A DNA stretch of 64,000 nt from Escherichia coli (lineage in GTDB: Bacteria; Pseudomonadota; Gammaproteobacteria; Enterobacterales; Enterobacteriaceae), in NCBI RefSeq assembly GCF_044647545.1, contig NZ_CP172818.1. The stretch is one strand, 5' to 3'. The position numbers were made by a program, and so were the translations under genes. Under the pieces are notes generated by a model. It was not told where the DNA came from, did not search any database, and worked only from the letters and a program-made list of their open reading frames with translations. Each line of letters opens with the position of its first letter. Within the stretch, counting starts at the first letter, position 1. Below, piece after piece: positions 307 through 64,000 of this stretch.

Positions 307-1161
307 ATGGTACTGATGATCGTCAGCGGACGTTCAGGTTCAGGTAAATCTGTCGCCCTGCGTGCGCTGGAAGATATGGGTTTTTACTGCGTGGATAACC
401 TTCCCGTAGTGTTGTTACCCGATCTGGCTCGAACTCTGGCCGATCGCGAGATTTCTGCCGCCGTCAGCATTGATGTTCGTAATATGCCGGAGTCACCAGA
501 AATATTCGAACAGGCGATGAGTAACCTGCCTGACGCTTTCTCACCGCAACTACTGTTCCTGGATGCCGACCGTAATACCTTAATTCGTCGTTACAGTGAC
601 ACGCGCCGACTGCATCCGCTTTCCAGCAAAAACCTGTCGCTGGAAAGTGCTATCGACAAAGAAAGCGATTTGCTGGAGCCTCTGCGTTCGCGAGCGGATC
701 TGATTGTCGATACCTCAGAAATGTCCGTTCACGAGCTGGCTGAAATGCTGCGTACCCGTCTGCTGGGTAAACGTGAACGCGAACTGACCATGGTCTTTGA
801 GTCTTTTGGCTTCAAACACGGTATCCCTATCGATGCAGATTACGTCTTTGACGTGCGCTTCTTGCCGAACCCGCACTGGGATCCGAAACTGCGTCCAATG
901 ACAGGTCTGGATAAGCCTGTCGCCGCGTTCCTCGACCGCCACACAGAAGTACACAATTTTATCTACCAGACGCGAAGCTATCTTGAGCTATGGTTACCTA
1001 TGCTGGAAACCAACAACCGTAGCTACCTGACGGTCGCCATTGGTTGTACCGGCGGGAAGCACCGTTCGGTGTATATTGCAGAGCAACTGGCAGACTACTT
1101 CCGCTCGCGCGGTAAAAACGTCCAGTCACGCCATCGTACGCTGGAAAAACGCAAACCATGA
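307..1161 (+). CDS. rapZ: RNase adaptor protein RapZ (YhbJ), P-loop NTPase
   Basis: 284-aa ORF with Walker A GRSGSGKS near the N-terminus; length and sequence match RapZ; 4-bp overlap with npr. Confidence 0.95.
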
Positions 1162-1430
1162 CCGTCAAGCAAACTGTTGAAATCACAAACAAGCTGGGCA
1201 TGCATGCCCGGCCTGCAATGAAGCTGTTTGAATTAATGCAAGGTTTTGACGCTGAAGTGCTGTTACGTAATGACGAAGGCACCGAGGCTGAAGCCAACAG
1301 CGTTATTGCACTGCTGATGCTGGATTCTGCCAAAGGACGGCAGATTGAAGTTGAAGCGACCGGTCCGCAGGAAGAGGAAGCACTGGCCGCCGTTATCGCC
1401 CTCTTTAACTCTGGTTTTGATGAAGATTAA
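1158..1430 (+). CDS. npr: Phosphocarrier protein NPr (PtsO)
   Basis: 90-aa [23 protein letters not shown]..., HPr-like with active-site His; position after rapZ. Confidence 0.95.
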
Positions 1431-1575
1431 TCTTCATCACTTTGACATTCAAATCCCTTCAAGCTCCCCCGGCAATAAGAAAAGCGCGTACTGAAATCGT
1501 TATCAATCAACGTCAATTGTACATTTCGTGCGCTTTTTACTTTCAGAAGAACCTTAAGAAAACCTTAAGAAGCAT

Positions 1576-1592
1576 TGTTTAGATTTCGTTTA
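1576..1592 (+). promoter_or_regulatory. Putative PhoP box (direct repeat TGTTTA-N5-CGTTTA) upstream of yrbL
   Basis: Sequence tgtttagatttcgttta ~50 bp upstream of the yrbL start matches the PhoP box hexamer direct-repeat architecture; yrbL is a known PhoP-activated gene. Confidence 0.55.
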
Positions 1593-1642
1593 AGTTAATC
1601 GACCATACTGGAGATCGTCAGAAAATATTTCCAGGAGATGGC

Positions 1643-2275
1643 ATGATTCGCTTATCTGAACAAAGTCCCCTGGGCACCGGAAGACATCGGAAATGTTATG
1701 CGCATCCGGAAGATGCCCAACGCTGTATCAAGATTGTCTACCATCGTGGCGATGGTGGCGATAAAGAGATCCGCCGTGAGTTAAAGTACTACGCGCATCT
1801 TGGTCGTCGGTTAAAAGACTGGAGTGGAATACCGCGCTATCACGGTACCGTTGAGACGGATTGCGGAACCGGTTATGTCTACGATGTGATTGCAGATTTT
1901 GACGGCAAACCCTCCATTACGCTGACCGAATTTGCTGAACAATGCCGTTACGAAGAAGACATTGCACAACTGCGCCAGATACTGAAACAGCTGAAGCGTT
2001 ATTTGCAGGATAACCGTATCGTGACGATGTCGCTGAAGCCGCAGAATATCCTCTGTCACCGCATCAGTGAGTCAGAGGTTATCCCCGTCGTCTGCGACAA
2101 CATTGGTGAAAGCACATTGATTCCACTGGCGACCTGGTCGAAGTGGTGTTGTCTGCGTAAGCAAGAGCGGTTATGGAAACGATTTATCGCCCAACCGGCG
2201 CTGACTATTGCCCTGCAGAAAGATCTGCAACCTCGTGAAAGCAAAACGCTGACCCTCACTTCGCGCGAAGCTTAA
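1643..2275 (+). CDS. yrbL: PhoP-regulated protein YrbL
   Basis: 210-aa [31 protein letters not shown]...; length and sequence match YrbL. Confidence 0.9.
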
Positions 2276-3000
2276 TCCAGCTGGTGTTGTTGCATAAACG
2301 ACTCACCGCCTAACTGATACATCTGCCGTAAAATCCACGCCTGACGGCTACGCACGTAGCCCGATGGCGCGGAGACTTTGAAACGAAGTGGATTAGGTAA
2401 TACAGCTGCCAGTAATGCAGCTTCCGACCGGGTAAGCTTGCTCGCGGGTTTGTGGAAATAACGTTGTGCCGCAGCTTCGACGCCAAACACACCGTCGCCA
2501 AATTCGGCGATATTCAGGTAAACCGTCAGGATACGCTTTTTGCTCCAGACCGTTTCTATCCCCAGCGTTAATCCAGCTTCCAGCCCTTTTCGAACCCAGC
2601 TACGCCCATCCCATAAAAAGAGATTTTTGGCAGTCTGCTGAGAAATCGTTGAAGCACCGCGAATACGGTTTTCATTGCGCTCGTTGTGCGCCAGGGCTTT
2701 CTCAATGGAAGCGACATCAAAGCCCCAGTGCTCAGGAAATGTCTGATCTTCTGCGGCAATCACCGCCAGTCCCATCCACGGCGAGATTTGATCCATACTG
2801 ACCCAGTCAGAATGTGCCACGTAACGAAAATTGCCATGCAGCCAGGCGCTGACCTGTCGCTCGACCATTACCGCTGAGAAAGGAACAGGCGCAACGCTAA
2901 ACAACGCGATGCCCCCGCCCCAAAAAACGGCGAGGACAACCATTAACCGCAAAAGAAAACGGCGAACGAAACTAAACACCGTTAAGCGGCTTTTACTCAT
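2272..3000 (-). CDS. mtgA: Monofunctional peptidoglycan glycosyltransferase MtgA
   Basis: 242-aa ORF with N-terminal TM segment and transglycosylase motifs (AAEDQTF, RKGLEA...); 4-bp overlap with elbB. Confidence 0.93.
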
Positions 3001-3650
3001 TCAGCCAGAACCAGCACGCGGGAAACCAGCTTATCAATGCCGCTCGCCGCTTCTGCAATGTTCTGCGCCAGCATATATGCCGGGGTGGTGACAATCTTAT
3101 TGTCTTCATCAACCACGATATCATCGACAGGACACGGCACATGCTCCGCGCCCATCTCTTCCAGCACTTCTGCGGTATCAATATCAGTACCGATGGTCAA
3201 ACGCAGCGGGAAATCGAAAATTTTCGGCAGCATCGCCGGGGCAATACACATAAAACCAAGCGGTTTTCCGGCCTGATGCATCGCTTGTGCCAGCGCCTTT
3301 AATTCACGGTCAACGGTGCATTCGCGACCAAGACTGGCAAAATTGCTTAAATTCTTCGCCGCGCCAAACCCCCCCGGCACAATCAACGCATCCAGTTCAG
3401 CGGCATCGGCCTGGGCCAGAGGACGGATTTCACCGCGCGTTATTCGTGCCGCTTCAATCAGCACATTGCGCGTTTCCGTCATCGCTTCGCCCGTTAAATG
3501 GTTGATAACATCAACCTGCTGCTTATCCGGTGCAAAGCAGACCGCCTGCGCACCGCTGCGTGAAATAGCTAACAACGTCAACACCGCTTCATGAATTTCA
3601 GAACCGTCATAAACGCCGCATCCGCTCAGAATTACGCCAATTTTCTTCAT
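2997..3650 (-). CDS. elbB: Glyoxalase ElbB (DJ-1/PfpI family)
   Basis: ORF 2997..3659; likely start is [16 protein letters not shown] (217 aa) three codons inside the track ORF. Confidence 0.9.
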
Positions 3651-3767
3651 TGTGATCATCCTTTCGCAATTGACTGAAACACATTAATTTTTTTAATAAA
3701 AATGCTACGCATCACACATTTAACTGATTCATGTAACAAATCATTTAAGTTTTGCTATCTTAACTGC

Positions 3768-3889
3768 GTGCGGCCTGAAAAACAGTGCTGTGCCCTTGTA
3801 ACTCATCATAATAATTTACGGCGCAGCCAAGATTTCCCTGGTGTTGGCGCAGTATTCGCGCACCCCGGTCTAGCCGGGGTCATTTTTTA
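3768..3889 (+). ncRNA. arcZ: Hfq-dependent small RNA ArcZ (RyhA/SraH), convergent with and overlapping the arcB 3' end
   Basis: Sequence gtgcggcctgaaaaacagtgctgtgccc ... gcgcaccccggtctagccggggtcatttttt matches ArcZ as I recall it, including the 3' seed region and intrinsic terminator hairpin plus T6; location between elbB and arcB as in K-12. Confidence 0.8.
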
Positions 3890-6216
3890 GTGGCTTTTGC
3901 CACCCACGCTTTCAGTACTTCTACGTCGTGACGCCACTCTTCTTTCATCTCTTCAATCCATTCACCGACGTTATCTTCCCAGGCGGGAAGGTCAGGAGAC
4001 TGAATTTGCTGACCCAGCTGTTGCAGATGGCGTAACCCCACTGACCCCGCCGCACCTTTAATTTTATGTCCTTCCTCAACAATGCCTTTTTTATCCTGCG
4101 CCGTCAGATTCGACTCCAGCACGCTGACATAGCCCGGCATCATCTTCTCAAACACCGCTAACCCGTCGGTGATCAGCTTCGGTCCTACAAGTTCGAGATA
4201 CTGTTCCAGCATGGGAATATCGAGCAATGCTTCTGATTTACTGTTCTCTTCTGTCGTCACCGTACTTTCCTCATCATCCTGGGTATCCCAGAATTTCTTG
4301 ATCATCGCGGTTAGCGCCGGAACAGAAAGCGGCTTACTCAGCACATCATCCATTCCAGCATTGAGGTACTCTTGTTTGTCTTTCAGCACGTTAGCGGTTA
4401 AGGCCACCAGCGGTGGTAAATCCTCGCGCGGATAACGCTTCGTCAGTTCACGAGAGATATCCAGCCCGGTCATATCTGGCAACTGAATATCCAGCAACAC
4501 CAGGTCGTATTCGCCCGGTTTAAACATCTCCAGCGCCGCCTTGCCGGTCATGGCGACATCAACGCTGTTACCTAATTTTTCCAGCACAGAGCGTGCGACA
4601 ATCACGTTCAGTTCAATGTCTTCCACCAGCAGCACATTCAGCGCCGGTAAAGGCATATCGTCTTCATCAAACGCATCATCAACCTCTTCTGCTACCGACG
4701 GTGCGTGGATCGTCAACGTAAAGGTTGAACCTTTGCCCTGTTCGCTGGTAACCGTAATATCGCCGCCCATATTTTTCGCCAGACGACGAGAAACGGCCAG
4801 ACCAATACCGGTGCCGGTGGCAGGTTTACCGCCATGACTGTCTTTCACCTGGTAATACATGGCGAAGATTTTATCCAGCTCATCCTGCGGAATGCCGATA
4901 CCAGAGTCTTCCACTTCAAAATGCAGCATATCGCCTTCATCGTAGCGCACGCGCACGGTAACCTGGCCTTGCTGGGTGAATTTGACGGCGTTACTGATGA
5001 GGTTCCACAGGATCTGCCGTAAACGCGTCCCGTCGGTAATGACCTGATGCGGTAATGGCAGCGTCGGCTCCAGATTAAAGCGCAATCCTTTTTGTTGCGC
5101 CTGCAAGGCGGAGAGATTTTCCAGATCGGCAAGGAAGCTGGTGAAATCAACCGGCTGATTATCAAGCTGGACCTTGCGCCGTTCCATCTTATCCATGTCG
5201 ATAATATCGTTGAAGATATTCCCCAGCGTGACGGCCGAAACATGGATGGTTTTGAGGTATTTTTCCTGCTCGGCGGTGAGTTCGGTATCCAGCAGAATGC
5301 GGCTCAGGCCGACGATACCATTCAGCGGTGTACGCAATTCGTGACTGATGGTGGAGATAAACGTCGTTTTGTCGCGGCTGGCCCGTTCAAGCGCATCCTG
5401 ATACCGCTTACGCTCGGTAATGTCGCGACCAAAGCCCATCAAACCGTGACGTTTACCCACGCGGTCGTAGTACGGCACTTTACGGATTTCAAAGCAGGCT
5501 TTGCGCCCGTCCGGGTAATCCAGCCACTGTTCATAGGTCAGTGACACATTATGACGGAACACTTTTTCATCGGTTTCAATGACTTTTGCGGCGGCTTCCG
5601 GTGAGTAAACATCAGCAGGTTTCAGGTGAACCAGTTGTTTTTCGCTTTTTCCGGTCAGCAGCTCCATCGCGCGGTTACAGCCGGAAAACTCTTTATCTTC
5701 GTTACGATAAAAAACCAGGTCGGGTGAAGCATCAAGGAAGGAACGTAAGAATGAGGATTGCTGCTCGAGCTGAATTTGTGTCTCTTCGCGCTCTTTGATT
5801 TCAATTTTCAGTTGGCCGAAGGTTTCCTGCAGTTCTGCTTCCGCTTTTTCACGAACGGCGATTTCCTGATTTAGCTGGGCAATATTATCTTTTAACTGAA
5901 CGTTGAGGCTCAAATCGCGCTCGCGCATCTCCTCCAGTTTTTGCACCAGTCGTGACAGACGTTGCCGTGACTCCTCCAGTTGCTCGACGACCACCGATAG
6001 AAAGTAGACCGCCCACGGCGTAATCAGCAAACCAAAGAAGATAGAACGAATAACATCAATGCTTTCGACCTGACCATGCAGCACCATGGTTACCGCCATT
6101 TGTACCACAATGGCAAGAACGACGAGGGCCAGCGCCAGCAACATTGAGAAGCGCACCAGACCTAACTTCATCATCAGGTCAACATAATACTGCGCCAGCA
6201 GACGAATTTGCTTCAT
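3880..6216 (-). CDS. arcB: Aerobic respiration control sensor histidine kinase ArcB
   Basis: 778-aa ORF with TM segments, PAS, HisKA (SHELRTPLNG), HATPase, receiver and HPt domains. Confidence 0.97.
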   Translation of the reverse strand: MKQIRLLAQYYVDLMMKLGLVRFSMLLALALVVLAIVVQMAVTMVLHGQVESIDVIRSIFFGLLITPWAVYFLSVVVEQLEESRQRLSRLVQKLEEMRERDLSLNVQLKDNIAQLNQEIAVREKAEAELQETFGQLKIEIKEREETQIQLEQQSSFLRSFLDASPDLVFYRNEDKEFSGCNRAMELLTGKSEKQLVHLKPADVYSPEAAAKVIETDEKVFRHNVSLTYEQWLDYPDGRKACFEIRKVPYYDRVGKRHGLMGFGRDITERKRYQDALERASRDKTTFISTISHELRTPLNGIVGLSRILLDTELTAEQEKYLKTIHVSAVTLGNIFNDIIDMDKMERRKVQLDNQPVDFTSFLADLENLSALQAQQKGLRFNLEPTLPLPHQVITDGTRLRQILWNLISNAVKFTQQGQVTVRVRYDEGDMLHFEVEDSGIGIPQDELDKIFAMYYQVKDSHGGKPATGTGIGLAVSRRLAKNMGGDITVTSEQGKGSTFTLTIHAPSVAEEVDDAFDEDDMPLPALNVLLVEDIELNVIVARSVLEKLGNSVDVAMTGKAALEMFKPGEYDLVLLDIQLPDMTGLDISRELTKRYPREDLPPLVALTANVLKDKQEYLNAGMDDVLSKPLSVPALTAMIKKFWDTQDDEESTVTTEENSKSEALLDIPMLEQYLELVGPKLITDGLAVFEKMMPGYVSVLESNLTAQDKKGIVEEGHKIKGAAGSVGLRHLQQLGQQIQSPDLPAWEDNVGEWIEEMKEEWRHDVEVLKAWVAKATKK

Positions 6217-6311
6217 TAGGGAATTCCTTCACGACAACCTGCCCCAATAATACCCAATTCTGACAGTTACGTTATAAATTGTGTGAGAAATGCGGAATTC
6301 CCCTCAATGGC

Positions 6312-7241
6312 CTACGCCGTTGGAGGTAGCCACGGACGTCCCAGCGCCGATCCCTGTACGCCATGTTCATTCAGATAACGATCCAGCTCGACCATTCCCG
6401 TCCAGCGATTTTCGCACCACAGAGGAGCAAGCAGCGTCGGGCGACGGGCGCTGGCGGAAATGCGGTGGTAGATCACTTCCGGTGGCGTATGGCGAATCAT
6501 TTCTCCGGCAGTGAGCGTGTAATCTTCCAGTTCAATACCGTTCAAACGCCCCGCTTCCCAGGCTTTCGCCATAATGCTGCCTTTCACAATATGCAGCGGA
6601 TGCAGCTTTATGCCGTCCACGCCAGTTTCAACGACTCGCTCCAGCGTTTGCAAACATTCAGCCTGCCCTTCACCAGGCAGGCCGACAATTAAGTGAGAAC
6701 ACACCTTCAGCCCACGCTCACGCGCCAGCTGCGTCGTGCGCTGATAACAGGCAAAATCATGACCGCGATTGATGCGATGCAGCGTTTTGTCGTGGGCGGT
6801 TTGTAGCCCCAGCTCCAGCCACACTTCGTAACCCTGGTCCTTATATTCGCAAAGCAGATCCAGCACCGCATCCGGCACGCAGTCCGGGCGGGTACCAACA
6901 CACAAACCGACAATATTGGCCTGGCTCACCGCCTGCTGATACATAGAACGCAGCACCTGAACTTCCGCAAAGGTGCTGGTATACGCCTGAAAGTAGGCCA
7001 GATAGCGTTTAGCGCGGTTAACTAAATTCGCCTGGTGCGCCAGTTGCTCGGCAATGGAACGATGCTGCTGCGCTTCATCGGCAAACGAGGCCACATTACA
7101 GAATGTGCAGCCACCACGCCCGATGGTACCGTCACGGTTAGGGCAGCTAAAACCGCCGTGCAGCGTCAGCTTATGCACCTTTTGCCCATAACGACGGGTG
7201 AGATCACCACCAAACATATTGACTAATTTCTGTAACTGCAT
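6312..7241 (-). CDS. yhcC: Radical SAM family protein YhcC
   Basis: ORF 6312..7274 with a CxxxCxxC-type cluster (CPNRDGTIGRGGCTFC); likely start at MQLQKLVNMFGG giving ~309 aa; the upstream ATG at 7274 is an alternative. Confidence 0.85.
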   Translation of the reverse strand: MQLQKLVNMFGGDLTRRYGQKVHKLTLHGGFSCPNRDGTIGRGGCTFCNVASFADEAQQHRSIAEQLAHQANLVNRAKRYLAYFQAYTSTFAEVQVLRSMYQQAVSQANIVGLCVGTRPDCVPDAVLDLLCEYKDQGYEVWLELGLQTAHDKTLHRINRGHDFACYQRTTQLARERGLKVCSHLIVGLPGEGQAECLQTLERVVETGVDGIKLHPLHIVKGSIMAKAWEAGRLNGIELEDYTLTAGEMIRHTPPEVIYHRISASARRPTLLAPLWCENRWTGMVELDRYLNEHGVQGSALGRPWLPPTA

Positions 7242-7821
7242 AATCTGATAGACCGCGCCTTGAAAAGAGGCCAAAGCCTGCCATTTTTAGCTCAATTCGG
7301 CGATGACCTGGATCAATCGTCCCGGCCTGCTTTTATCAACTGCATAATCAATCAAAATTACCGAAATTTCATGCACAATCACATAAATCACTTTTGCTTA
7401 TCTTGTGTCAGATTTTTTTATCTCCTTATGGATTTTAGGCAAAAACAGTAGCATGAAACGTTATTACCAATTAAGGCAGTATAAAATGCTGGTTTTCTCG
7501 TCAGTTCAAGGCAGGATAAGGGTTAACACGCCTTTATGACAGTCAGGAATTGACTGTTTCTCTAACGACGCCCTTTTAGCCTTAAATAGAAAATCCACTT
7601 TAATTTCAGACAATTAATAAAGAATTTTGCGCTAAAGCACATTTCTGTACCAATAAGCTTGCCATTTGACCTGTATCAGCTTTCCCGATAAGTTGGAAAT
7701 CCGCTGGAAGCTTTCTGGATGAGCAGCCTGCTCATCATATTTATGCAGTAATTGAGATCCCCTCTTCACCGTATTAACCGATGCGAAAAGGACAACAAGG
7801 GGGCGAATGCGAGGCGCGCGT

Positions 7822-10800
7822 ATGACACGCAAACCCCGTCGCCACGCTCTTACTGTGCCCGTGCGCAGCGGTTCGGAAGTGGGGTTCCCGCAGAGCCTGG
7901 GGGAGGTTCACGATATGTTGTACGATAAATCCCTTGAGAGGGATAACTGTGGTTTCGGCCTGATCGCCCACATAGAAGGCGAACCTAGCCACAAGGTAGT
8001 GCGTACTGCAATACACGCACTGGCCCGCATGCAGCACCGTGGCGCGATTCTCGCCGATGGTAAAACCGGTGACGGTTGCGGCTTGCTGTTACAAAAACCG
8101 GATCGCTTTTTTCGCATCGTTGCGCAGGAGCGCGGCTGGCGTTTAGCAAAAAACTACGCTGTCGGGATGCTCTTCCTGAATAAAGATCCTGAACTCGCCG
8201 CTGCCGCACGCCGCATCGTTGAAGAAGAGCTGCAACGCGAAACATTGTCGATTGTGGGCTGGCGTGATGTCCCCACTAACGAAGGCGTGCTGGGTGAAAT
8301 CGCCCTCTCCTCTCTGCCACGCATTGAGCAAATTTTTGTGAACGCCCCGGCAGGCTGGCGTCCACGCGATATGGAGCGCCGTCTGTTTATCGCCCGCCGC
8401 CGCATTGAAAAGCGTCTCGAAGCCGACAAAGACTTCTACGTCTGTAGCCTGTCGAATCTGGTGAACATCTATAAAGGTCTGTGTATGCCGGCGGATCTGC
8501 CGCGCTTTTATCTGGATCTTGCGGACCTGCGTCTGGAATCGGCCATTTGCCTGTTCCACCAGCGCTTTTCCACTAACACCGTACCGCGCTGGCCGCTGGC
8601 ACAGCCGTTCCGCTACCTCGCGCATAACGGTGAAATCAACACCATCACTGGTAACCGCCAATGGGCGCGTGCGCGTACCTATAAATTCCAGACGCCGCTG
8701 ATCCCTGACCTGCACGACGCCGCGCCGTTCGTCAACGAAACCGGCTCTGACTCCAGTTCCATGGATAACATGCTGGAACTGCTGCTGGCAGGCGGGATGG
8801 ATATCATCCGCGCCATGCGTCTGTTAGTGCCACCCGCCTGGCAGAACAACCCGGATATGGACCCGGAACTGCGTGCCTTCTTTGACTTTAACTCCATGCA
8901 TATGGAGCCGTGGGATGGCCCGGCAGGCATCGTGATGTCTGACGGTCGTTTTGCCGCCTGTAACCTCGACCGTAACGGTCTGCGTCCGGCACGCTATGTC
9001 ATCACCAAAGATAAGCTCATTACCTGCGCCTCTGAAGTCGGTATCTGGGATTATCAGCCTGACGAAGTGGTCGAAAAAGGCCGCGTCGGGCCAGGCGAAC
9101 TGATGGTGATCGACACCCGCAGTGGGCGTATTCTGCACTCGGCAGAAACCGATGACGATCTGAAAAGCCGCCATCCATATAAAGAGTGGATGGAGAAAAA
9201 CGTCCGCCGACTGGTACCGTTTGAAGATCTGCCCGATGAAGAAGTGGGTAGCCGCGAACTGGACGACGACACGCTTGCCAGCTACCAGAAACAGTTTAAC
9301 TACAGCGCGGAAGAGCTGGACTCCGTAATTCGCGTACTGGGTGAAAACGGTCAGGAAGCCGTCGGTTCGATGGGCGATGATACCCCATTCGCCGTGCTCT
9401 CCAGTCAGCCGCGCATTATTTACGACTACTTCCGCCAGCAGTTTGCTCAGGTAACCAACCCGCCAATCGACCCGCTGCGTGAAGCGCATGTTATGTCGCT
9501 CGCCACCAGCATTGGCCGCGAAATGAACGTCTTCTGCGAAGCTGAAGGCCAGGCGCACCGTTTAAGCTTTAAATCGCCGATTCTGCTCTATTCCGATTTC
9601 AAACAGCTCACGACGATGAAAGAGGATCACTACCGCGCAGATACGCTGGATATCACCTTTGACGTCACTAAAACCACGCTCGAAGCGACGGTGAAAGAGC
9701 TGTGCGACAAAGCCGAAAAAATGGTACGTAGCGGCACCGTGCTGCTGGTGCTCTCCGACCGGAATATCGCTAAAGATCGCCTGCCGGTTCCGGCTCCGAT
9801 GGCGGTTGGCGCGATCCAGACCCGTCTGGTCGAGCAAAGCCTGCGTTGCGATGCCAACATCATCGTCGAAACCGCCAGCGCCCGTGATCCGCACCACTTC
9901 GCCGTGTTGCTGGGTTTCGGCGCGACGGCTATTTATCCGTACCTTGCCTATGAAACGCTGGGCCGTCTGGTAGACACCCACGCGATTGCCAAAGATTATC
10001 GTACCGTGATGCTCAACTATCGTAACGGCATCAACAAAGGCTTGTACAAAATCATGTCCAAAATGGGCATCTCCACCATCGCCTCTTATCGCTGCTCGAA
10101 ACTGTTTGAAGCGGTCGGTCTGCACGATGATGTCGTGGGCCTGTGCTTCCAGGGCGCGGTTAGCCGCATTGGCGGGGCGAGCTTTGAAGACTTCCAGCAG
10201 GATCTGCTGAATCTGTCGAAACGTGCCTGGCTGGCGCGTAAGCCCATCAGCCAGGGCGGCCTGCTGAAATACGTGCACGGTGGCGAATACCACGCCTACA
10301 ACCCGGACGTGGTGCGCACACTGCAACAGGCGGTACAAAGCGGCGAGTACAGCGACTATCAGGAATACGCGAAGCTGGTTAATGAGCGTCCGGCAACCAC
10401 GCTGCGCGATCTGCTGGCAATTACGCCGGGTGAAAACGCAGTCAACATTGCCGATGTTGAACCGGCAAGCGAACTGTTTAAACGCTTCGATACCGCTGCG
10501 ATGTCTATCGGCGCGTTAAGCCCGGAAGCCCACGAGGCGCTGGCTGAAGCGATGAACAGCATCGGCGGTAACTCGAACTCCGGTGAAGGGGGTGAAGATC
10601 CGGCGCGCTACGGTACCAACAAAGTCTCACGCATCAAGCAGGTGGCGTCCGGTCGCTTCGGTGTTACTCCGGCGTATCTGGTCAATGCTGACGTCATTCA
10701 GATTAAAGTCGCCCAGGGCGCGAAGCCGGGCGAAGGCGGTCAGTTGCCGGGTGATAAAGTCACTCCTTACATTGCCAAACTGCGCTATTCGGTGCCCGGA

Positions 10801-50260: not shown

Positions 50261-50562
50261 CCATTTAGCAAGGATTAATAAGAGAGGGAACTCATTTTGA
50301 AATCATTATTCAATCGGTTAACGGGAAAAGCGGTTAGCCGGACAGCTTTCGTCGAACATCTTGGTCATGAAGTTGTACAACATCATCCAAACTGGAAAGT
50401 CATGATTTCGACTGACCATAAATTGATGCGCATTGATACTCACCAAACGGTAAATCACTCTTGATGATCTACAAATAACAAAAATAATATAAAAAAAACA
50501 TTTAAAAAAAAAAACGCCTCGCTGGATTTTGCCTGGGAAGACTTAACGATGAGTTAATTATC

Positions 50563-50735
50563 TTGTTTGCTGAAGATGGTAGCGAAACCATGCGCTATCT
50601 GATGCGCTACGAAGTGACCATTGACCGCGAACAAGCCATCAATAATTTGAAGCAAATATTGCCGGAAGTTTCGGCTGAAATCGTTGATACAGGCGCAAAC
50701 GCTGGAAAATTTGCCGTTATCTCCCCAGGGGTCTT
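50563..50735 (+). other. Candidate protein-coding start (ORF N-terminus) that runs into the low-complexity tract; product unknown
   Basis: Track ORF 50563..50988; first ~58 codons (…MRYLMRYEVTIDREQAINNLKQILPEVSAEIVDTGANAGKFAVISPG) have E. coli-like codon usage, then the frame enters homopolymer sequence; not recognised. Confidence 0.25.
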
Positions 50736-50736
50736 T

Positions 50737-51120
50737 AGACCCCCCTCTTGTTCCTTTTACCTTTTCGCCAACCCCCCCCCAAATTTTTATCCCCCCCCCC
50801 AAAAAAAATTTTTTTTCCCCACAAAAAAAACCACCCAAAACCCCACCCATAATAAAAAAAAAAAAAAAAAATTCCCCCCTGCAAGAACCACCCCTCCAAA
50901 AAAAAAAATTTATCCCCCCCAAACTCTCTTTTCCCCGGAAAAAACCCTTCATCAACCCACCCCCCCAGATAAAAAAAATTGGGGATGATGGTAAAAATTC
51001 AAAAACACCAAACGCCTTTCCCCAAAAATTTTTTTTTTTTTTTAGCGAAAAAATCAAAAAACAAAAAAACGCACTGCCGCCTGACAAAACAGTTTACCTT
51101 CTGCAAAATGGGGGGAATAA
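50737..51120. other. Anomalous low-complexity tract: A/C/T homopolymer runs, almost no G; probable sequencing/assembly artefact
   Basis: Read directly: runs such as c9, a8, t8, a18, t14 interspersed over ~380 bp; strong strand asymmetry; unlike any surrounding sequence. Confidence 0.8.
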
Positions 51121-53635: not shown

Positions 53636-53651
53636 GACTGCAAAAGCGCTC

Positions 53652-53678
53652 AAAAGGCCGGATTTTCCGGCCTTTTTT
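53652..53678 (+). terminator. Intrinsic terminator after accC
   Basis: aaaaggccgg-atttt-ccggcc hairpin followed by T6. Confidence 0.7.
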
Positions 53679-53743
53679 ATTACTGGGGATTGATATCTAC
53701 ATAAGGTACAATCCTCGTTCTCTTCACCCATCAGGGACAAAAA

Positions 53744-53986
53744 ATGGACACTCGTTTTGTTCAGGCCCATAAAGAGGCGCGCTGGGCGCTGGGGCTGACC
53801 CTTTTGTATCTGGCGGTATGGTTAGTAGCCGCTTACTTACCTGGCGTTACCCCCGGTTTTACCGGCTTTCCACGCTGGTTTGAGATGGCTTGCATCCTGA
53901 CGCCGCTGCTGTTTATTGGACTGTGCTGGGCGATGGTGAAATTTATCTATCGCGATATCCCGCTGGAGGATGACGATGCAGCTTGA
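53744..53986 (+). CDS. yhdT: Small membrane protein YhdT (DUF997)
   Basis: 80-aa ORF with two TM segments; overlaps the panF start. Confidence 0.88.
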   Translation: MDTRFVQAHKEARWALGLTLLYLAVWLVAAYLPGVTPGFTGFPRWFEMACILTPLLFIGLCWAMVKFIYRDIPLEDDDAA

Positions 53987-55427
53987 AGTGATTCTACCGC
54001 TGGTCGCCTATCTGGTGGTGGTGTTCGGGATTTCAGTTTATGCAATGCGTAAACGGAACACCGGCACCTTCCTCAATGAGTATTTCCTCGGCAGCCGTTC
54101 TATGGGCGGTATTGTGCTGGCGATGACGCTCACCGCGACCTATATCAGTGCCAGTTCGTTTATCGGCGGGCCAGGAGCTGCTTATAAATACGGCCTGGGT
54201 TGGGTATTGCTGGCGATGATTCAGCTTCCTGCGGTCTGGCTTTCGCTCGGTATTCTCGGCAAGAAGTTCGCGATTCTTGCGCGCCGCTACAATGCGGTGA
54301 CGCTGAACGATATGCTGTTTGCCCGCTATCAGAGTCGTCTGCTGGTGTGGCTGGCGAGTTTAAGTTTGCTGGTTGCGTTCGTTGGTGCGATGACCGTGCA
54401 GTTTATCGGCGGTGCGCGCCTGCTGGAAACCGCGGCGGGTATTCCTTATGAAACCGGGCTGCTGATTTTCGGTATCAGCATTGCGTTGTATACCGCCTTT
54501 GGTGGCTTTCGCGCCAGCGTGCTGAACGACACCATGCAAGGACTGGTGATGCTGATTGGCACCGTTGTGCTGCTTATTGGCGTGGTCCATGCTGCTGGCG
54601 GCTTAAGCAATGCAGTAGAGACGCTGCAAACCATTGATCCGCAACTGGTTACGCCACAAGGCGCTGACGATATTCTGTCACCTGCGTTTATGACGTCGTT
54701 CTGGGTGCTGGTGTGCTTTGGCGTTATTGGCCTGCCGCATACTGCGGTGCGCTGTATCTCCTATAAAGACAGCAAAGCAGTACATCGGGGGATCATCATC
54801 GGTACGATTGTAGTCGCAATCCTGATGTTCGGTATGCACCTAGCCGGAGCATTAGGTCGTGCAGTGATCCCCGATCTCACCGTACCGGACCTGGTGATCC
54901 CGACGTTGATGGTAAAAGTACTGCCACCGTTTGCTGCCGGGATCTTCCTTGCAGCTCCTATGGCTGCGATCATGTCGACGATCAACGCCCAATTGCTGCA
55001 AAGTTCCGCTACGATCATTAAAGATCTCTATCTGAATATCCGTCCGGATCAAATGCAAAACGAGACGCGCCTGAAGCGGATGTCGGCGGTGATTACGTTG
55101 ATTCTCGGCGCGTTGCTGCTGCTTGCTGCATGGAAGCCGCCTGAAATGATCATCTGGCTGAATTTGCTGGCCTTCGGCGGGCTGGAAGCTGTCTTCCTGT
55201 GGCCGCTGGTACTGGGTCTTTACTGGGAACGCGCTAACGCCAAAGGCGCGCTAAGTGCGATGATCGTTGGCGGCGTGCTGTATGCCGTACTTGCGACACT
55301 GAATATTCAGTACCTGGGCTTCCACCCTATCGTGCCCTCGTTGCTGCTAAGTTTGCTGGCTTTCCTGGTCGGAAACCGTTTCGGTACGTCCGTCCCGCAA
55401 GCTACCGTTTTGACTACTGATAAATAA
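53976..55427 (+). CDS. panF: Sodium/pantothenate symporter PanF
   Basis: ORF 53970..55427; likely start [23 protein letters not shown] (483 aa); SSS-family multi-TM. Confidence 0.95.
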
Positions 55428-55438
55428 AGAGTTTTGCC

Positions 55439-56320
55439 ATGCCTTGGATCCAACTGAAACTGAACACCACCGGCGCGAACGCCGAAGATCTTAGCGATGC
55501 GCTGATGGAAGCGGGTGCCGTTTCTATCACTTTTCAGGATACCCACGATACGCCTGTATTTGAGCCGCTTCCGGGCGAAACGCGTCTGTGGGGCGACACC
55601 GATGTGATTGGCCTGTTCGATGCTGAAACCGACATGAAAGAAGTCGTGGCGATTCTGGAGAATCATCCGCTGCTCGGCGCAGGCTTCGCGCACAAAATCG
55701 AACAACTGGAAGATAAAGACTGGGAGCGCGAATGGATGGATAATTTCCACCCAATGCGCTTTGGCGAACGTCTGTGGATCTGCCCAAGCTGGCGTGATGT
55801 GCCGGACGAAAACGCCGTCAACGTAATGTTAGACCCAGGTCTGGCGTTTGGTACAGGGACTCATCCAACTACCTCTCTGTGCCTGCAATGGCTCGACAGC
55901 CTCGATTTAACCGGTAAAACGGTCATCGACTTTGGCTGTGGTTCCGGCATTCTGGCTATCGCGGCGCTGAAACTGGGTGCAGCAAAAGCCATTGGTATTG
56001 ATATTGATCCGCAGGCGATTCAGGCCAGCCGCGACAACGCCGAACGTAATGGCGTTTCTGACCGTCTGGAACTCTACCTACCTAAAGATCAGCCAGAAGA
56101 AATGAAAGCCGACGTGGTGGTCGCTAACATCCTTGCAGGCCCATTACGTGAACTGGCACCGTTAATCAGCGTCCTGCCGGTTTCAGGTGGCTTGCTGGGC
56201 CTTTCCGGTATTCTGGCAAGCCAGGCAGAGAGCGTTTGTGAAGCTTATGCCGACAGCTTCGCTCTGGACCCGGTCGTGGAAAAAGAAGAGTGGTGCCGCA
56301 TTACCGGTCGTAAGAATTAA
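55439..56320 (+). CDS. prmA: Ribosomal protein L11 methyltransferase PrmA
   Basis: 293-aa [37 protein letters not shown]… with SAM-binding [13 protein letters not shown]. Confidence 0.95.
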
Positions 56321-56648
56321 CCTTCGCATCGCCGTAGGGTGACGCAAGGCGAAGTGCGAGCAAGGTCACAAAAGGCACGTTAATTTGCCGATTATTTACG
56401 CAAATTTGCGTGCCAAAATTTTCATTCATAAAGAAAAATTGAGAACTTACTCAAATTTCTTGGAGTGTAAATTTTAGTCACTATTTTCTAATATAATGAT
56501 TTTTATGAGTAATTATCGCGCCAAGCTCATTTTAAATGCAATTCTTTGATCCATCTCAGATGATTGGTCAAAGTTTGGCCTTTCATCTCGTGCAAAAAAT
56601 GCGTAATATACGCCGCCTTGCAGTCACAGTATGGTCATTTCTTAACTC

Positions 56649-57614
56649 ATGCGCATCGGACAATATCAGCTCAGAAATCGCCTGATCGCAGCGCCCATGG
56701 CTGGCATTACAGACAGACCTTTTCGGACGTTGTGCTACGAGATGGGAGCCGGATTGACAGTATCCGAGATGATGTCTTCTAACCCACAGGTTTGGGAAAG
56801 CGACAAATCTCGTTTACGGATGGTGCACATTGATGAACCCGGTATTCGCACCGTGCAAATTGCTGGTAGCGATCCGAAAGAAATGGCAGATGCAGCACGT
56901 ATTAACGTGGAAAGCGGTGCCCAGATTATTGATATCAATATGGGTTGCCCGGCTAAAAAAGTGAATCGCAAGCTCGCAGGTTCAGCCCTTTTGCAGTACC
57001 CGGATGTCGTTAAATCGATCCTAACCGAGGTCGTCAATGCAGTGGACGTTCCTGTTACCCTGAAGATTCGCACTGGCTGGGCACCGGAACACCGTAACTG
57101 CGAAGAGATTGCCCAACTGGCTGAAGACTGTGGCATTCAGGCTCTGACCATTCATGGCCGTACACGCGCCTGTTTGTTCAATGGAGAAGCTGAGTACGAC
57201 AGTATTCGGGCAGTTAAGCAGAAAGTTTCCATTCCGGTTATCGCGAATGGCGACATTACTGACCCGCTTAAAGCCAGAGCTGTGCTCGACTATACAGGGG
57301 CGGATGCCCTGATGATAGGCCGCGCAGCTCAGGGAAGACCCTGGATCTTTCGGGAAATCCAGCATTATCTGGACACTGGGGAGTTGCTGCCCCCGCTGCC
57401 TTTGGCAGAGGTTAAGCGCTTGCTTTGCGCGCACGTTCGGGAACTGCATGACTTTTATGGTCCGGCAAAAGGGTACCGAATTGCACGTAAACACGTTTCC
57501 TGGTATCTCCAGGAACACGCTCCAAATGACCAGTTTCGGCGCACATTCAACGCCATTGAGGATGCCAGCGAACAGCTGGAGGCGTTGGAGGCATACTTCG
57601 AAAATTTTGCGTAA
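56649..57614 (+). CDS. dusB: tRNA-dihydrouridine synthase B
   Basis: 321-aa [38 protein letters not shown]…; first gene of the dusB-fis operon. Confidence 0.96.
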
Positions 57615-57639
57615 ACAGAAATAAAGAGCTGACAGAACT

Positions 57640-57936
57640 ATGTTCGAACAACGCGTAAATTCTGACGTACTGACCGTTTCTACCGTTAACTCTCAGGATC
57701 AGGTAACCCAAAAACCCCTGCGTGACTCGGTTAAACAGGCACTGAAGAACTATTTTGCTCAACTGAACGGTCAGGATGTGAATGACCTCTATGAGCTGGT
57801 ACTGGCTGAAGTAGAACAGCCCCTGTTGGACATGGTGATGCAATACACCCGTGGTAACCAGACCCGTGCTGCGCTGATGATGGGCATCAACCGTGGTACG
57901 CTGCGTAAAAAATTGAAAAAATACGGCATGAACTAA
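57640..57936 (+). CDS. fis: Nucleoid-associated protein Fis
   Basis: 98-aa [101 protein letters not shown]. Confidence 0.99.
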
Positions 57937-57961
57937 TTCAGGTTAGCTAAATGCTTGATTA

Positions 57962-57997
57962 AAAAGGCGCTACTCGGCATGGGGAAGCGCCTTTTTT
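57962..57997 (+). terminator. Intrinsic terminator after fis
   Basis: aggcgc ... gcgcc hairpin followed by T6. Confidence 0.65.
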
Positions 57998-58021
57998 ATA
58001 GGTGTCACAAAGGGAGTGACC

Positions 58022-58906
58022 ATGAGAACAGGATGTGAACCGACCCGATTTGGTAATGAAGCAAAGACCATCATCCAGGGTGATGCATTAACCGAACTTA
58101 AAAAGATCCCCGCCGATAGTGTAGATCTGATCTTTGCCGACCCACCGTATAACATCGGTAAAAATTTTGATGGTCTGATCGAAGCCTGGAAAGAAGATCT
58201 GTTTATCGACTGGCTGTTTGAAGTGATTGCATAGTGCCACCGCGTTCTGAAAAAGCAGGGCAGCATGTACATCATGAACAGCACGGAAAACATGCCCTTT
58301 ATCGATCTCCAGTGCCGCAAGCTTTTTACCATCAAAAGTCGCATCGTCTGGTCATATGACAGTTCTGGAGTGCAGGCGAAAAAACACTACGGCTCCATGT
58401 ACGAACCCATCCTGATGATGGTGAAAGACGCAAAGAACTACACGTTCAACGGTGATGCTATTCTGGTAGAAGCCAAAACCGGATCGCAGCGCGCGTTGAT
58501 CGATTATCGCAAAAATCCTCCACAGCCTTACAATCATCAAAAAGTACCGGGTAACGTCTGGGATTTTCCGCGCGTGCGTTATTTGATGGATGAATATGAA
58601 AACCACCCGACGCAAAAACCGGAAGCCTTACTGAAACGCATTATTCTCGCCTCTTCCAACCCAGGCGATATCGTTCTCGACCCGTTTGCCGGTAGCTTTA
58701 CTACCGGTGCCGTAGCCGTCGCCAGCGGGCGAAAATTCATTGGTATTGAGATCAACAGCGAGTACATCAAAATGGGGCTTCGACGGCTGGATGTCGCGTC
58801 GCATTACTCTGCGGAAGAACTGGCGAAAGTGAAAAAAAGAAAGACCGGCAACCTGTCAAAACGAAGCCGGTTAAGCGAAGTTGACCCCGATCTCATTGCA
58901 AAGTAA
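58022..58906 (+). pseudogene. yhdJ: DNA adenine methyltransferase YhdJ interrupted by a single in-frame TAG stop (codon 71, 58232-58234)
   Basis: Track ORFs 58016..58234 and 58265..58906 are in the same frame separated only by the TAG; both halves match YhdJ (DPPY motif in the N-terminal part, SAM-binding region after it); total span equals 294 codons. Confidence 0.8.
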
Positions 58907-58989
58907 AGGAAGTGTAAGCCTGGTTTTCAGATTATTCATTTCGTGTATATTTCCTGCCAGACTTGGTTAAACATGCACAGGCTCAGGTA

Positions 58990-59169
58990 ATGATTCGCAA
59001 GTATTGGTGGCTCGTCGTTTTCGCTGTCTTCGTTTTTCTGTTTGATACTTTACTGATGCAGTGGATTGAACTGCTGGCAACAGAAACAGACAAATGCCGC
59101 AATATGAACTCAGTTAATCCACTAAAACTGGTTAACTGTGACGAACTGAATTTTCAGGACAGAATGTGA
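58990..59169 (+). CDS. yhdU: Small membrane protein YhdU
   Basis: ORF 58963..59169; likely start MIRKYWWLVVFAVFVFLFDTLLMQW (59 aa). Confidence 0.8.
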   Translation: MIRKYWWLVVFAVFVFLFDTLLMQWIELLATETDKCRNMNSVNPLKLVNCDELNFQDRM

Positions 59170-59171
59170 AT

Positions 59172-59834
59172 TTATATGACACTTAATTCATTCGTTTGAC
59201 GAATTAATTTCGTTATGTTTTCATCTGGCATAAACATTCTTAATACGTTATCGACCAGTGCGGGTGCTTGTTTATAAAGATCATAACCCGCCATATTCAT
59301 TAACCAGTTTTGAACAATTCCGCTGAAGGCACCATCAATAATAATCATCACAACATCTAAATCGAGATTATTTGCTATACAACCTTGTTGCTGACATGCC
59401 TGCAATACTTCGTGGAGAGTCTGCGGATTAAAGCCCATCTTTTCGCGTATCACTCCCTCTGCCAGCATCTCATCATTAAATTCACATTTGTGATATAAGA
59501 TTTTCAGCAACGCCTGCTGGCGGGGAATTTTGGCAATATATTGCAAGCCAACAATCAATTTTTCACGCAATTGTTGAAACGGGTCATGCTCTAACCCAGC
59601 CGTCAAGTGTTCCTGGATTAACTCCCGCAATGAAGGCTGTTGCAACCACATCTCATTAAACAGTTGGGTCTTGTTCTCGAAGTGCCAGTAGATAGCGCCA
59701 CGCGTAACGTTAGCGGCATCGGCAATGTCGTTGAGCGTCGTCTTGCTTACGCCATGTTGCGCAAACTGGGCGATGGCAGTTTCAATCAGTTCTTGCCGGG
59801 TCTTCAGAGCTTCGGCTTTGGTTCTTTTTGCCAT
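59172..59834 (-). CDS. envR: TetR-family repressor EnvR (AcrS)
   Basis: 220-aa ORF MAKRTKAEALKTRQELIETAIAQFAQHGVSKTTLNDIADAANVTRGAIYWHF…; divergent from acrEF. Confidence 0.95.
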   Translation of the reverse strand: MAKRTKAEALKTRQELIETAIAQFAQHGVSKTTLNDIADAANVTRGAIYWHFENKTQLFNEMWLQQPSLRELIQEHLTAGLEHDPFQQLREKLIVGLQYIAKIPRQQALLKILYHKCEFNDEMLAEGVIREKMGFNPQTLHEVLQACQQQGCIANNLDLDVVMIIIDGAFSGIVQNWLMNMAGYDLYKQAPALVDNVLRMFMPDENITKLIRQTNELSVI

Positions 59835-60232
59835 GATTAATTATTCAGGAAATAAATATATTCGACACAGAGTGAGAAAATAGCGAAGGTTAATCTATCA
59901 CCTAATGTGTATTTATACGAGAGGCTAATATTGAGTTGCTATAAATCGTCAAATAAATAACGTTTATTATTTACCTAAAACACATTCACTCTATCAATAT
60001 ATATTTCAATTTACGAGGATTTGATTCTACCTCTTTCAACCCGCGTCAAAATAAAACAGTAGAATATTAATCTTTTTTTGTGTTTATGTGCCTTGAGACG
60101 CTAGTATTCATAACTATTCCTTACATCGACGAATGATAATTTGTAGGATAGCGAACTGTATTTTTCTTTCTGCGAGTTAACGCGTTGCCTTTTTGGGTAA
60201 ATAACGCGCTTTTGGTTTTTTGAGGAATAGTA

Positions 60233-61390
60233 ATGACGAAACATGCCAGGTTTTTCCTCCTGCCCTCCTTTATTCTGATCTCCGCGGCTTTAATCGCCGG
60301 TTGTAACGATAAGGGAGAAGAGAAAGCTCACGTCGGTGAACCGCAGGTTACCGTTCATATTGTGAAAACGGCCCCGTTAGAAGTTAAGACTGAATTACCA
60401 GGCCGCACCAATGCTTACCGTATAGCCGAAGTTCGCCCACAGGTTAGCGGGATCGTACTGAGTCGCAATTTCACTGAAGGCAGCGATGTGCAAGCAGGCC
60501 AGTCTCTGTACCAGATCGATCCCGCGACCTATCAGGCAAGTTATGACAGCGCGAAAGGCGAACTGGCGAAAAGTGAAGCCGCCGCCGCCATCGCGCATTT
60601 GACGGTAAAACGTTACGTTCCGCTCGTGGGTACGAAATACATCAGTCAGCAGGAGTACGACCAGGCCATTGCTGATGCTCGCCAGGCCGATGCCGCCGTG
60701 ATTGCCGCAAAAGCCACGGTCGAAAGCGCTCGCATCAATCTCGCTTATACCAAAGTGACTGCGCCAATTAGTGGACGTATCGGCAAATCGACTGTGACCG
60801 AAGGCGCTCTTGTCACTAATGGGCAAACGACTGAACTGGCGACTGTCCAGCAGCTCGATCCTATCTACGTTGATGTGACCCAATCCAGCAACGATTTTAT
60901 GAGGCTGAAGCAATCCGTAGAGCAAGGAAATTTGCATAAGGAAAACGCCACCAGCAACGTAGAGTTGGTCATGGAAAACGGTCAAACCTATCCCCTGAAA
61001 GGTACGCTGCAATTCTCCGATGTTACCGTTGATGAAAGCACCGGCTCCATAACCCTACGTGCCGTCTTCCCTAACCCGCAACATACGCTTTTACCTGGTA
61101 TGTTTGTGCGCGCACGGATTGATGAAGGCGTCCAATCTGATGCCATTCTTATCCCGCAACAAGGCGTTAGCCGCACACCGCGTGGTGATGCAACCGTGCT
61201 GATTGTTAACGATAAAAGTCAGGTTGAAGCGCGCCCTGTCGTTGCCAGCCAGGCGATTGGCGATAAATGGTTGATTAGCGAAGGGCTGAAATCTGGCGAT
61301 CAAGTCATTGTCAGCGGCCTGCAAAAAGCGCGTCCGGGAGAGCAGGTTAAAGCCACTACCGATACCCCCGCAGATACTGCATCGAAGTAA
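60233..61390 (+). CDS. acrE: Multidrug efflux membrane fusion lipoprotein AcrE
   Basis: 385-aa ORF with lipoprotein signal (…LIAGCNDKG…), AcrA-like. Confidence 0.95.
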
Positions 61391-61401
61391 GGCAATCTGA
61401 C

Positions 61402-64000
61402 ATGGCAAACTTTTTTATTCGACGACCGATATTTGCATGGGTGCTGGCCATTATTCTGATGATGGCGGGTGTACTGGCGATCCTACAATTGCCCGTCGCC
61501 CAATACCCAACCATTGCGCCGCCTGCAGTTTCTGTTTCGGCAAACTATCCGGGCGCTGATGCGCAGACCGTGCAGGATACGGTGACGCAGGTTATCGAAC
61601 AGAATATGAATGGTATCGATAACCTGATGTATATGTCCTCCACCAGCGATTCCGCCGGTAGCGTGACAATTACCCTTACCTTCCAGTCCGGGACCGATCC
61701 AGATATCGCGCAAGTGCAGGTGCAGAACAAACTCCAGCTCGCCACGCCGTTGCTGCCGCAGGAGGTACAACAGCAGGGGATCAGTGTTGAAAAGTCCAGT
61801 AGCAGCTATTTGATGGTGGCGGGCTTTGTCTCTGATAACCCAGGCACCACACAGGACGATATCTCGGACTATGTGGCCTCTAACGTTAAAGATACGCTTA
61901 GCCGTCTGAATGGCGTCGGTGACGTACAACTTTTCGGCGCACAGTATGCGATGCGTATCTGGTTGGACGCCGATCTGCTAAACAAATACAAACTGACGCC
62001 GGTTGATGTGATTAACCAGTTGAAGGTACAGAACGATCAGATCGCTGCCGGACAGTTGGGCGGAACGCCAGCGTTACCAGGGCAACAGTTGAACGCCTCG
62101 ATTATTGCTCAGACGCGGTTAAAAAATCCGGAAGAATTCGGCAAAGTGACCTTGCGCGTAAACAGTGACGGCTCGGTGGTACGCCTGAAAGATGTCGCAC
62201 GGGTTGAACTTGGCGGTGAAAACTATAACGTTATCGCTCGCATCAACGGTAAACCGGCGGCGGGCCTGGGTATTAAGCTGGCAACCGGCGCTAATGCTCT
62301 CGATACCGCGAAAGCCATTAAGGCAAAACTGGCGGAATTACAGCCATTCTTCCCGCAGGGAATGAAGGTTCTCTACCCTTATGACACCACGCCATTCGTC
62401 CAGCTTTCTATTCACGAAGTGGTAAAAACGCTGTTCGAAGCCATTATGCTGGTGTTCCTGGTGATGTATCTGTTCTTGCAGAATATGCGAGCAACGCTGA
62501 TCCCCACCATTGCGGTACCCGTAGTGTTGTTAGGGACGTTTGCCATCCTCGCCGCTTTTGGTTACTCCATCAATACACTAACGATGTTCGGGATGGTGCT
62601 TGCCATCGGGCTGCTCGTCGATGATGCGATAGTGGTGGTGGAGAACGTCGAGCGCGTGATGATGGAGGATAAGCTCCCGCCAAAAGAAGCGACGGAAAAA
62701 TCAATGTCGCAAATCCAGGGCGCACTGGTGGGTATCGCGATGGTGCTGTCAGCGGTATTTATTCCAATGGCATTCTTCGGCGGTTCTACTGGGGCAATTT
62801 ACCGCCAGTTCTCTATCACCATCGTTTCGGCAATGGCGCTTTCTGTTCTGGTGGCATTGATTCTTACCCCAGCGTTATGTGCAACACTGCTCAAACCCGT
62901 CTCTGCTGAGCATCACGAAAATAAGGGCGGTTTCTTCGGCTGGTTTAATACCACCTTCGATCATAGCGTTAACCACTACACCAACAGCGTCGGCAAAATC
63001 CTCGGTTCCACAGGACGATATTTACTGATCTATGCACTAATTGTTGCTGGAATGGTGGTGTTGTTTTTACGTCTTCCGTCTTCCTTCTTACCTGAAGAGG
63101 ATCAGGGAGTCTTCCTGACTATGATTCAGTTACCCGCTGGCGCGACGCAAGAGCGGACGCAAAAAGTGTTGGATCAAGTGACGGATTACTATCTGAAGAA
63201 CGAGAAAGCGAACGTAGAAAGTGTCTTTACGGTTAACGGCTTTAGCTTCAGCGGCCAGGCACAAAACGCCGGTATGGCTTTCGTCAGTCTGAAACCGTGG
63301 GAAGAGCGTAGTGGTGACGAAAACAGTGCGGAAGCGGTAATCCATCGTGCCAAAATGGAGTTGGGCAAGATCCGCGACGGTTTTGTCATTCCATTCAATA
63401 TGCCAGCCATTGTTGAACTGGGCACGGCAACGGGTTTCGACTTTGAGTTAATTGATCAGGCTGGGCTGGGTCACGATGCCCTGACCCAGGCCCGTAACCA
63501 GTTGCTTGGCATGGCGGCGCAACATCCTGCCAGCTTAGTCAGCGTGCGTCCTAATGGTCTGGAAGACACCGCGCAGTTTAAACTGGAAGTTGACCAGGAA
63601 AAGGCGCAGGCATTAGGTGTTTCACTTTCTGACATCAATCAGACTATTTCAACGGCGTTGGGTGGGACTTACGTTAACGACTTCATTGACCGTGGTCGCG
63701 TGAAAAAGGTGTATGTTCAGGCGGATGCCAAATTCCGTATGCTGCCAGAAGATGTCGATAAACTTTATGTCCGCAGCGCCAACGGCGAAATGGTGCCATT
63801 CTCTGCCTTTACCTCTGCACATTGGGTGTATGGCTCTCCGCGACTGGAGCGCTACAACGGTCTGCCGTCAATGGAGATTCAGGGGGAAGCCGCGCCAGGA
63901 ACCAGTTCCGGCGATGCCATGGCGTTGATGGAAAACCTTGCATCACAATTACCAGCTGGCATTGGTTATGACTGGACGGGTATGTCATATCAGGAACGCT
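61402..64000 (+). CDS. acrF: RND multidrug efflux transporter AcrF, 5' portion (continues beyond the window)
   Basis: ATG at 61402 with SD upstream; frame open to the window end; translation [61 protein letters not shown]… is AcrB/AcrF-like. Confidence 0.93.

Follow-up and report, generated by a model that had tools for sequence, protein, structure and literature searches.

An interrupted yhdJ gene downstream of fis

The stretch of Escherichia coli DNA analyzed here, called the window throughout, is 64,000 nucleotides long and carries the genes dusB, fis, yhdJ, yhdU, acrS, and acrE in that order, the same order as in K-12 and in ST648 genomes. In the window, yhdJ occupies the conserved chromosomal position of the YhdJ orthologue, with dusB-fis before it and yhdU and acrS (envR) after it. 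The features of the locus are as follows.

57961 to 57996, plus strand: terminator-like hairpin of fis with a U-tract, ending 25 nt before the yhdJ ATG
58022 to 58906, plus strand: yhdJ pseudogene (M.EcoKII-type N6-adenine DNA methyltransferase), 294 codons plus TAA, broken at codon 71
58022 to 58231, plus strand: N-terminal fragment of 70 amino acids, with catalytic motif IV, DPPY (residues 40 to 43, nt 58139 to 58150)
58232 to 58234, plus strand: premature amber codon TAG, codon 71; ancestral codon GAG (Glu), G-to-T transversion at 58232
58265 to 58906, plus strand: C-terminal open reading frame (ORF) of 213 amino acids from the in-frame ATG at codon 82, with the AdoMet-binding motif I region PFAGSFTTG (residues 221 to 229, nt 58682 to 58708) and without DPPY

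Positions 58223 to 58240 of the window read GTG ATT GCA TAG TGC CAC. Translation of 58022 to 58906 gives 70 residues (MRTG...FEVIA), the stop at codon 71, 223 sense codons, and the natural TAA, and in the ORF list the yhdJ frame falls into two pieces, 58016 to 58234 and 58265 to 58906. The uninterrupted frame of about 294 codons expected of a functional yhdJ is therefore absent. The initial annotation had reported an amber codon splitting an otherwise intact yhdJ, and its coordinates, the assignment to codon 71, the quoted peptide, the length of 294 codons, and the identity of the gene all agree with the sequence, the translation, and the ORF list.

YhdJ, also known as M.EcoKII (b3262), is described as an orphan, CcrM-like, beta-class N6-adenine DNA methyltransferase with the target ATGCAT (Broadbent et al. 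2007, as cited in PMC4444293 and PMC4659465). When codon 71 is read as Glu, the protein from the window matches the NCBIfam yhdJ equivalog NF008572 (PRK11524) over profile positions 1 to 294 of 294 with 587.5 bits, against a cut-off of 292, and Pfam PF01555 (N6_N4_Mtase) with 216.2 bits. The reverted protein has the beta-class order, with motif IV (DPPY) on the N-terminal side of motif I (FxGxG-like). Among its solved relatives, CcrM, M.MboIIA, and M.RsrI are the closest. A chance ORF was considered and rejected, as the 894-bp stretch with T reverted to G is 100% identical to an intact yhdJ in 24 complete genomes and the equivalog profile is matched from end to end.

Ancestral state and reality of the amber codon

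The initial annotation had proposed comparison with the yhdJ alleles of other strains, and this was done with a query of 55 bases, placed so that position 58232 falls in each of its 28-base seed words, searched in 5,426 complete E. coli genomes. The version with G, encoding GAG (Glu), was found in 5,358 of the genomes, and the version with T in 57, every match being 100%. Moreover, the 24 complete genomes with the reverted 894-bp stretch have the same yhdJ allele as the window but with GAG. From these counts and these identical alleles it follows that the ancestral codon was GAG and that the lesion is a single G-to-T change on an unchanged haplotype. The reading as a nonsense pseudogene is thereby borne out: GAG has become TAG on an otherwise intact allele, and RefSeq gives the gene an "internal stop."

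A sequencing or assembly error, in which the true base at 58232 would be G and yhdJ would be intact, had been offered as another reading of the TAG. Two things speak for it, namely that the assembly of the window has a visibly bad patch at 50440 to 51069 and that the collection has no complete genome collinear with it. Against it, T at 58232 is shared by 57 complete assemblies, which are independent of one another and come from different laboratories and technologies, and positions 53745 to 64000, 10,256 bp that contain yhdJ, are 100% identical to the carrier FDAARGOS_497. The 70-amino-acid N-terminal product is encoded on at least 1,000 public contigs. The 213-amino-acid product of the C-terminal ORF is likewise found on at least 1,000 public contigs, although it is a less specific marker than the 70-amino-acid product, since frameshifted assemblies with GAG give it too. 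Sequencing error is excluded at the level of the lineage, and for the window itself we regard it as having next to no chance of being right.

Predicted effect on the protein

The stop falls at approximately profile position 36 of 221 in the single N6_N4_Mtase domain. The 70-residue fragment matches only positions 1 to 36 of the Pfam profile, with 25.2 bits, under the cut-off of 26.7, and the 213-residue fragment matches positions 49 to 218 of 221 with 153.6 bits. A beta-class enzyme is expected to have the catalytic and the cofactor-binding motifs on one polypeptide, and here the stop parts them. The CcrM structure 6pbd could be aligned over residues 10 to 265, which places codon 71 inside the catalytic fold and not between domains. 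Because the stop divides the methyltransferase domain between DPPY and the AdoMet-binding motif, the product is expected to be inactive, and judging from the sequence, the TAG allele would have lost enzymatic activity and with it the methylation of ATGCAT at N6 of its second adenine, which gives protection from NsiI.

An in-frame ATG (codon 82, 58265) lies 31 nt past the stop, and the sequence upstream of it, AAAAAGCAGGGCAGC, has a weak Shine-Dalgarno-like AGG. Translation from this codon may yield a catalytically incomplete C-terminal fragment. There was no second inactivating mutation in yhdJ in the carrier alleles examined, and for this reason a dead gene and one still used in some form look the same at the sequence level.

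Expression context

The hairpin between fis and yhdJ was missed by a simple terminator scan on account of its long loop and was recovered by direct folding. The RNA of 57950 to 58010 folds with -23.5 kcal/mol (z = -4.0), and none of 200 shuffled sequences folded as well. We found no sigma-70-like site between this hairpin and yhdJ. Expression of yhdJ would thus depend on read-through past the fis terminator. The combination of a terminator and the lack of a promoter-like site may account for the transcriptional silence of yhdJ in E. coli, and it fits the silence of the gene in K-12 (PMC4444293).

Carriers, lineage, and age of the allele

All of the TAG carriers for which a sequence type was found belong to ST648, phylogroup F. 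The carriers MS6198 and "ST648" have been typed as ST648, phylogroup F (PMC8281228), and the carrier IMT16316 is named in papers on ST648 strains. The hosts and sources of the carriers are diverse and include humans, dogs, wild birds, a dolphin, pigs, poultry, and wastewater. In both carriers whose RefSeq (PGAP) annotation was inspected, FDAARGOS_497 and strain ST648, yhdJ is labeled a pseudogene with an internal stop. The yhdJ pseudogene is thus an already annotated, ordinary, clone-specific loss-of-function allele; a literature search for yhdJ together with ST648 found no paper.

The genomes that have the same allele with GAG include CFSAN061771, M160133, and LD67-1, which are ST1485, phylogroup F (PMC9630279). 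In a 25-kb comparison, the 53 best matches were all carriers, listed at 100.0% identity, a few of them differing by about one to two single-nucleotide polymorphisms (SNPs) as judged from the bit score, and the next matches were GAG genomes about three SNPs lower in score. One of the GAG genomes, WB61, differs from the window at exactly three positions in the aligned stretches outside the patch at 50440 to 51069, two of them in panF and the third being the TAG itself; within yhdJ, position 58232 is the sole difference.

The panF SNP A54842 is present in 49 of the 57 TAG carriers and absent from 8, which indicates that the TAG is older than at least part of the diversification of the carriers. 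The description of the pseudogene as recent consequently holds only in part: the gene does have a nonsense allele, but that allele is not private to one isolate, is common to 57 complete genomes, and predates at least one SNP among its carriers. Taken together, the sequence comparisons present the TAG as a clone-wide inherited allele and not one isolate's private mutation, and it would have had a single origin, passed on by descent. As a clade marker for close relatives, A54842 was dropped. The G-to-A change at 54842, by which the window differs from the nearest GAG genomes, is also found in several hundred unrelated genomes, O157:H7 among them, together with another nearby mismatch, and it is homoplasic or recombinant.

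Two contigs, L011 and L012, were suspected of being TAG carriers of another lineage, having an island-less gene order like that of the window (described below) and an identical 213-amino-acid product. They were rejected as carriers, for they have GAG at codon 71 and what breaks the gene in them is indels upstream, in noisy assemblies with 99.2% and 98.0% identity to the window.

In a subset of the TAG assemblies, an integrase-bearing, P4-like element lies directly upstream of yhdJ (L010, positions 1 to 9655 of GCA_000522185.2, and nine similar places). The element of L010 encodes a tyrosine integrase, AlpA, a D5-type primase, a capsid protein, and a protease. In L010, identity to the window starts at 57920, within the last 17 bases of fis, and this suggests that the 3' end of fis is the attachment site of the element.

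Screen for amber suppressors

An amber codon may also be read through, and the initial annotation had raised dependence on amber suppression and a look at the host genotype for supE and supF. Suppression is the classical way in which amber alleles stay functional in laboratory strains, and we found nothing else in favor of a yhdJ kept functional by a host suppressor tRNA. In wild isolates, strong amber suppression comes at a cost, and a UAG with U as the next base, the case at codon 71 of yhdJ, is an efficient terminator. The screen covered the supE type (glnV/X, anticodon CUG to CUA) and the supF type (tyrT/V, GUA to CUA) among the possible suppressor loci, using 55-base probes made from the K-12 genes.

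The 64-kb window has no tRNA gene. The supE-type glnV/X(CUA) sequence was found in 158 genomes, one of which is that of ER3413, a methylation-free strain with yhdJ inactivated, and among the 60 matches listed, all were on K-12-sized chromosomes (4.5 to 4.8 Mb), most of them those of named laboratory derivatives of K-12. The supF-type tyrT/V(CUA) sequence was found in one genome, that of the laboratory strain OV2. A concatenated TAG-plus-supE probe matched 215 places in 215 records, never more than one in a genome, so that no genome has both. Among complete E. coli genomes, then, the TAG carriers have neither suppressor type, and the proposed dependence on suppression found no footing; that a suppressor tRNA keeps yhdJ functional in the host of the window is, in our estimation, improbable in the extreme.

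In all of the 60 listed genomes with the supE-type tRNA-Gln (CUA), RefSeq has no annotated feature under the match at the glnV/glnX locus of these K-12 laboratory strains. The annotation pipeline apparently does not call the supE-type suppressor tRNA gene.

Irregularities elsewhere in the window

Apart from three features, the window matches ST648 genomes base for base. Positions 50440 to 51069, about 630 bases, are G-poor and consist largely of long homopolymer runs, for example CCCCCCCCCCAAAAAAAATTTTTTTT, and form the sole such patch in the 64 kb. The patch stands in for most of an 831-bp hypothetical gene and the spacer downstream of it, which are intact in all close relatives, and an island of 220 bp of true sequence lies in its middle. 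It looks like low-quality or artificial sequence.

The window is also without an 8.7-kb sugar-utilization island between accC and yhdT, which is found in every TAG carrier where the stretch is visible and encodes an aldose epimerase, two sugar kinases, a sugar ABC transporter, a tagatose-bisphosphate aldolase, and a DeoR regulator. In place of the island, at 53636 to 53744, stands a 109-bp spacer similar to that of K-12 and SMS-3-5, with about nine differences, whereas the flanks are 100% identical to ST648 genomes. A reference-guided consensus built on K-12 was considered as the cause of the missing island and rejected, given about 400 differences from K-12 over about 20 kb, the accC-yhdT spacer included.

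In the tldD-yhdP intergenic region, at 38141, there is a 2-bp deletion relative to FDAARGOS_497, an AT missing before a run of T. From 31003 to the end of the window, this deletion is the sole difference from FDAARGOS_497 outside the patch and the missing island. Among the complete genomes, none proved collinear with the window; the best coverage was 98% for a 25-kb query and 90% for a 3.6-kb query across the odd junctions. The patch, the missing island, and the deletion at 38141 suggest that the source assembly has local problems or that the isolate is unusual, and they leave the conclusion on yhdJ unaffected.

Interpretation and alternatives

We hold with high confidence that yhdJ in the window is an inherited loss-of-function allele of the ST648 clone, in which a G-to-T change turned Glu71 into an amber codon. 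The proposed course of events would begin with one transversion, from GAG to TAG, in the ancestry of the ST648 clone (phylogroup F). Translation would then end after 70 residues, cutting the domain between the N-terminal DPPY and the C-terminal target-recognition and AdoMet-binding parts (213 residues), and no single polypeptide would have all of the parts needed to methylate ATGCAT. The TAG allele is probably neutral, to judge from what is known of the gene elsewhere, since the cell can do without YhdJ and, in K-12 at least, its expression is not detectable; the allele could have hitch-hiked during the spread of the clone.

Beyond the error and suppression readings dealt with above, the broken gene might not be simply dead, either because its loss was favored by selection as the pandemic ST648 clone emerged or because the 70-residue and the reinitiated 213-residue fragments still act, together or separately. 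Taken as a whole, this idea seems to us improbable, and the present findings lend support to neither of its two forms. For selected loss, by way of, e.g., effects of methylation on phages, plasmids, or gene expression, one may cite the global success and multidrug resistance of the carrier clone, the independent loss of yhdJ in Salmonella Paratyphi A (PMC9239280), and the finding that a Salmonella yhdJ deletion was recovered from the spleen of mice slightly more often than the wild type (PMC9239280). However, no selection is required for a single event to hitch-hike in a clone, and the ST1485 genomes with the same haplotype keep yhdJ intact; we consider adaptive loss quite unlikely. Residual function is a still slimmer prospect. 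Here translation would restart at Met82, and the 213-residue fragment would serve as a noncatalytic DNA- or AdoMet-binding protein or would form a two-piece methyltransferase with the 70-residue fragment that has DPPY. The closeness of the in-frame ATG to the stop, with AGCAGGGCAGC before it, the 170 of 221 Pfam domain positions that the C-terminal fragment retains, and the lack of further lesions in the carrier alleles examined are all in keeping with such a use. On the other hand, the cut lies inside the Rossmann-like catalytic core and not at a domain boundary, the lack of further decay is what would be expected in a young clone, and in K-12 even the intact gene is silent (PMC4444293).

Inherited loss of function in ST648 leads to a prediction and to two practical uses. 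ST648 strains should be unable to methylate ATGCAT even where conditions might switch yhdJ on elsewhere. Since ST1485 genomes of the same haplotype keep GAG, the TAG allele could be used as a single-base marker of ST648, and ST648 and ST1485 offer a natural knockout and wild-type pair with which to study the role of a conserved, silent orphan methyltransferase. If the loss had instead been selected, or if the fragments had a function, the "pseudogene" of this high-risk clone would be the sign of a genuine change in its epigenetic or defense biology.

Comparison with known systems

The nearest known counterpart is YhdJ of K-12, which the protein of the window resembles in its locus between fis and yhdU/acrS, in its full-length match to NF008572, and in its DPPY and PFAG motifs. 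The two genes differ at 20 nucleotides and the proteins at 5 amino acids besides codon 71, which is TAG in the window, with the frame broken, and GAG in K-12, where the gene is intact but silent. In K-12, the gene can be deleted and is nonessential, and YhdJ methylates ATGCAT solely on overexpression (PMC4444293). Methylation of ATGCAT was likewise absent in three natural E. coli isolates that have yhdJ (PMC9911048).

Salmonella offers a closer parallel for the loss itself. YhdJ is active in wild-type Salmonella, yet deletion of yhdJ has almost no phenotype, and a truncation of the gene, 151*, is prevalent in S. Paratyphi A (PMC9239280). Both 151* and the TAG of ST648 are lineage-specific premature stops, and both fall in this orthologous orphan methyltransferase, the deletion of which is almost without effect (PMC9239280). 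The two are independent events, in different species and at different codons, 151 versus 71, and the Salmonella enzyme is active whereas that of E. coli K-12 is silent. For the loss of yhdJ in a single lineage, 151* sets a direct precedent.

Early nonsense mutation in a nonessential orphan DNA methyltransferase is also known from dcm-6 of K-12, a nonsense mutation at codon 45 of Dcm that abolishes methylation and leaves viability unaffected (PMC4444293). In contrast to the yhdJ TAG, a natural, clone-wide allele of an adenine methyltransferase, dcm-6 is a laboratory mutant of a cytosine-5 methyltransferase. Finally, CcrM of Caulobacter is the closest solved structure (PDB 6pbd, E = 7e-32, residues 10 to 265) and has the same beta-class order of motifs. 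An orthologue of CcrM was nevertheless rejected for the protein of the window, which scores 135 bits against a CcrM equivalog cut-off of 830, and unlike YhdJ, CcrM is essential and cell cycle regulated, recognizes GANTC, and has an extra C-terminal domain.
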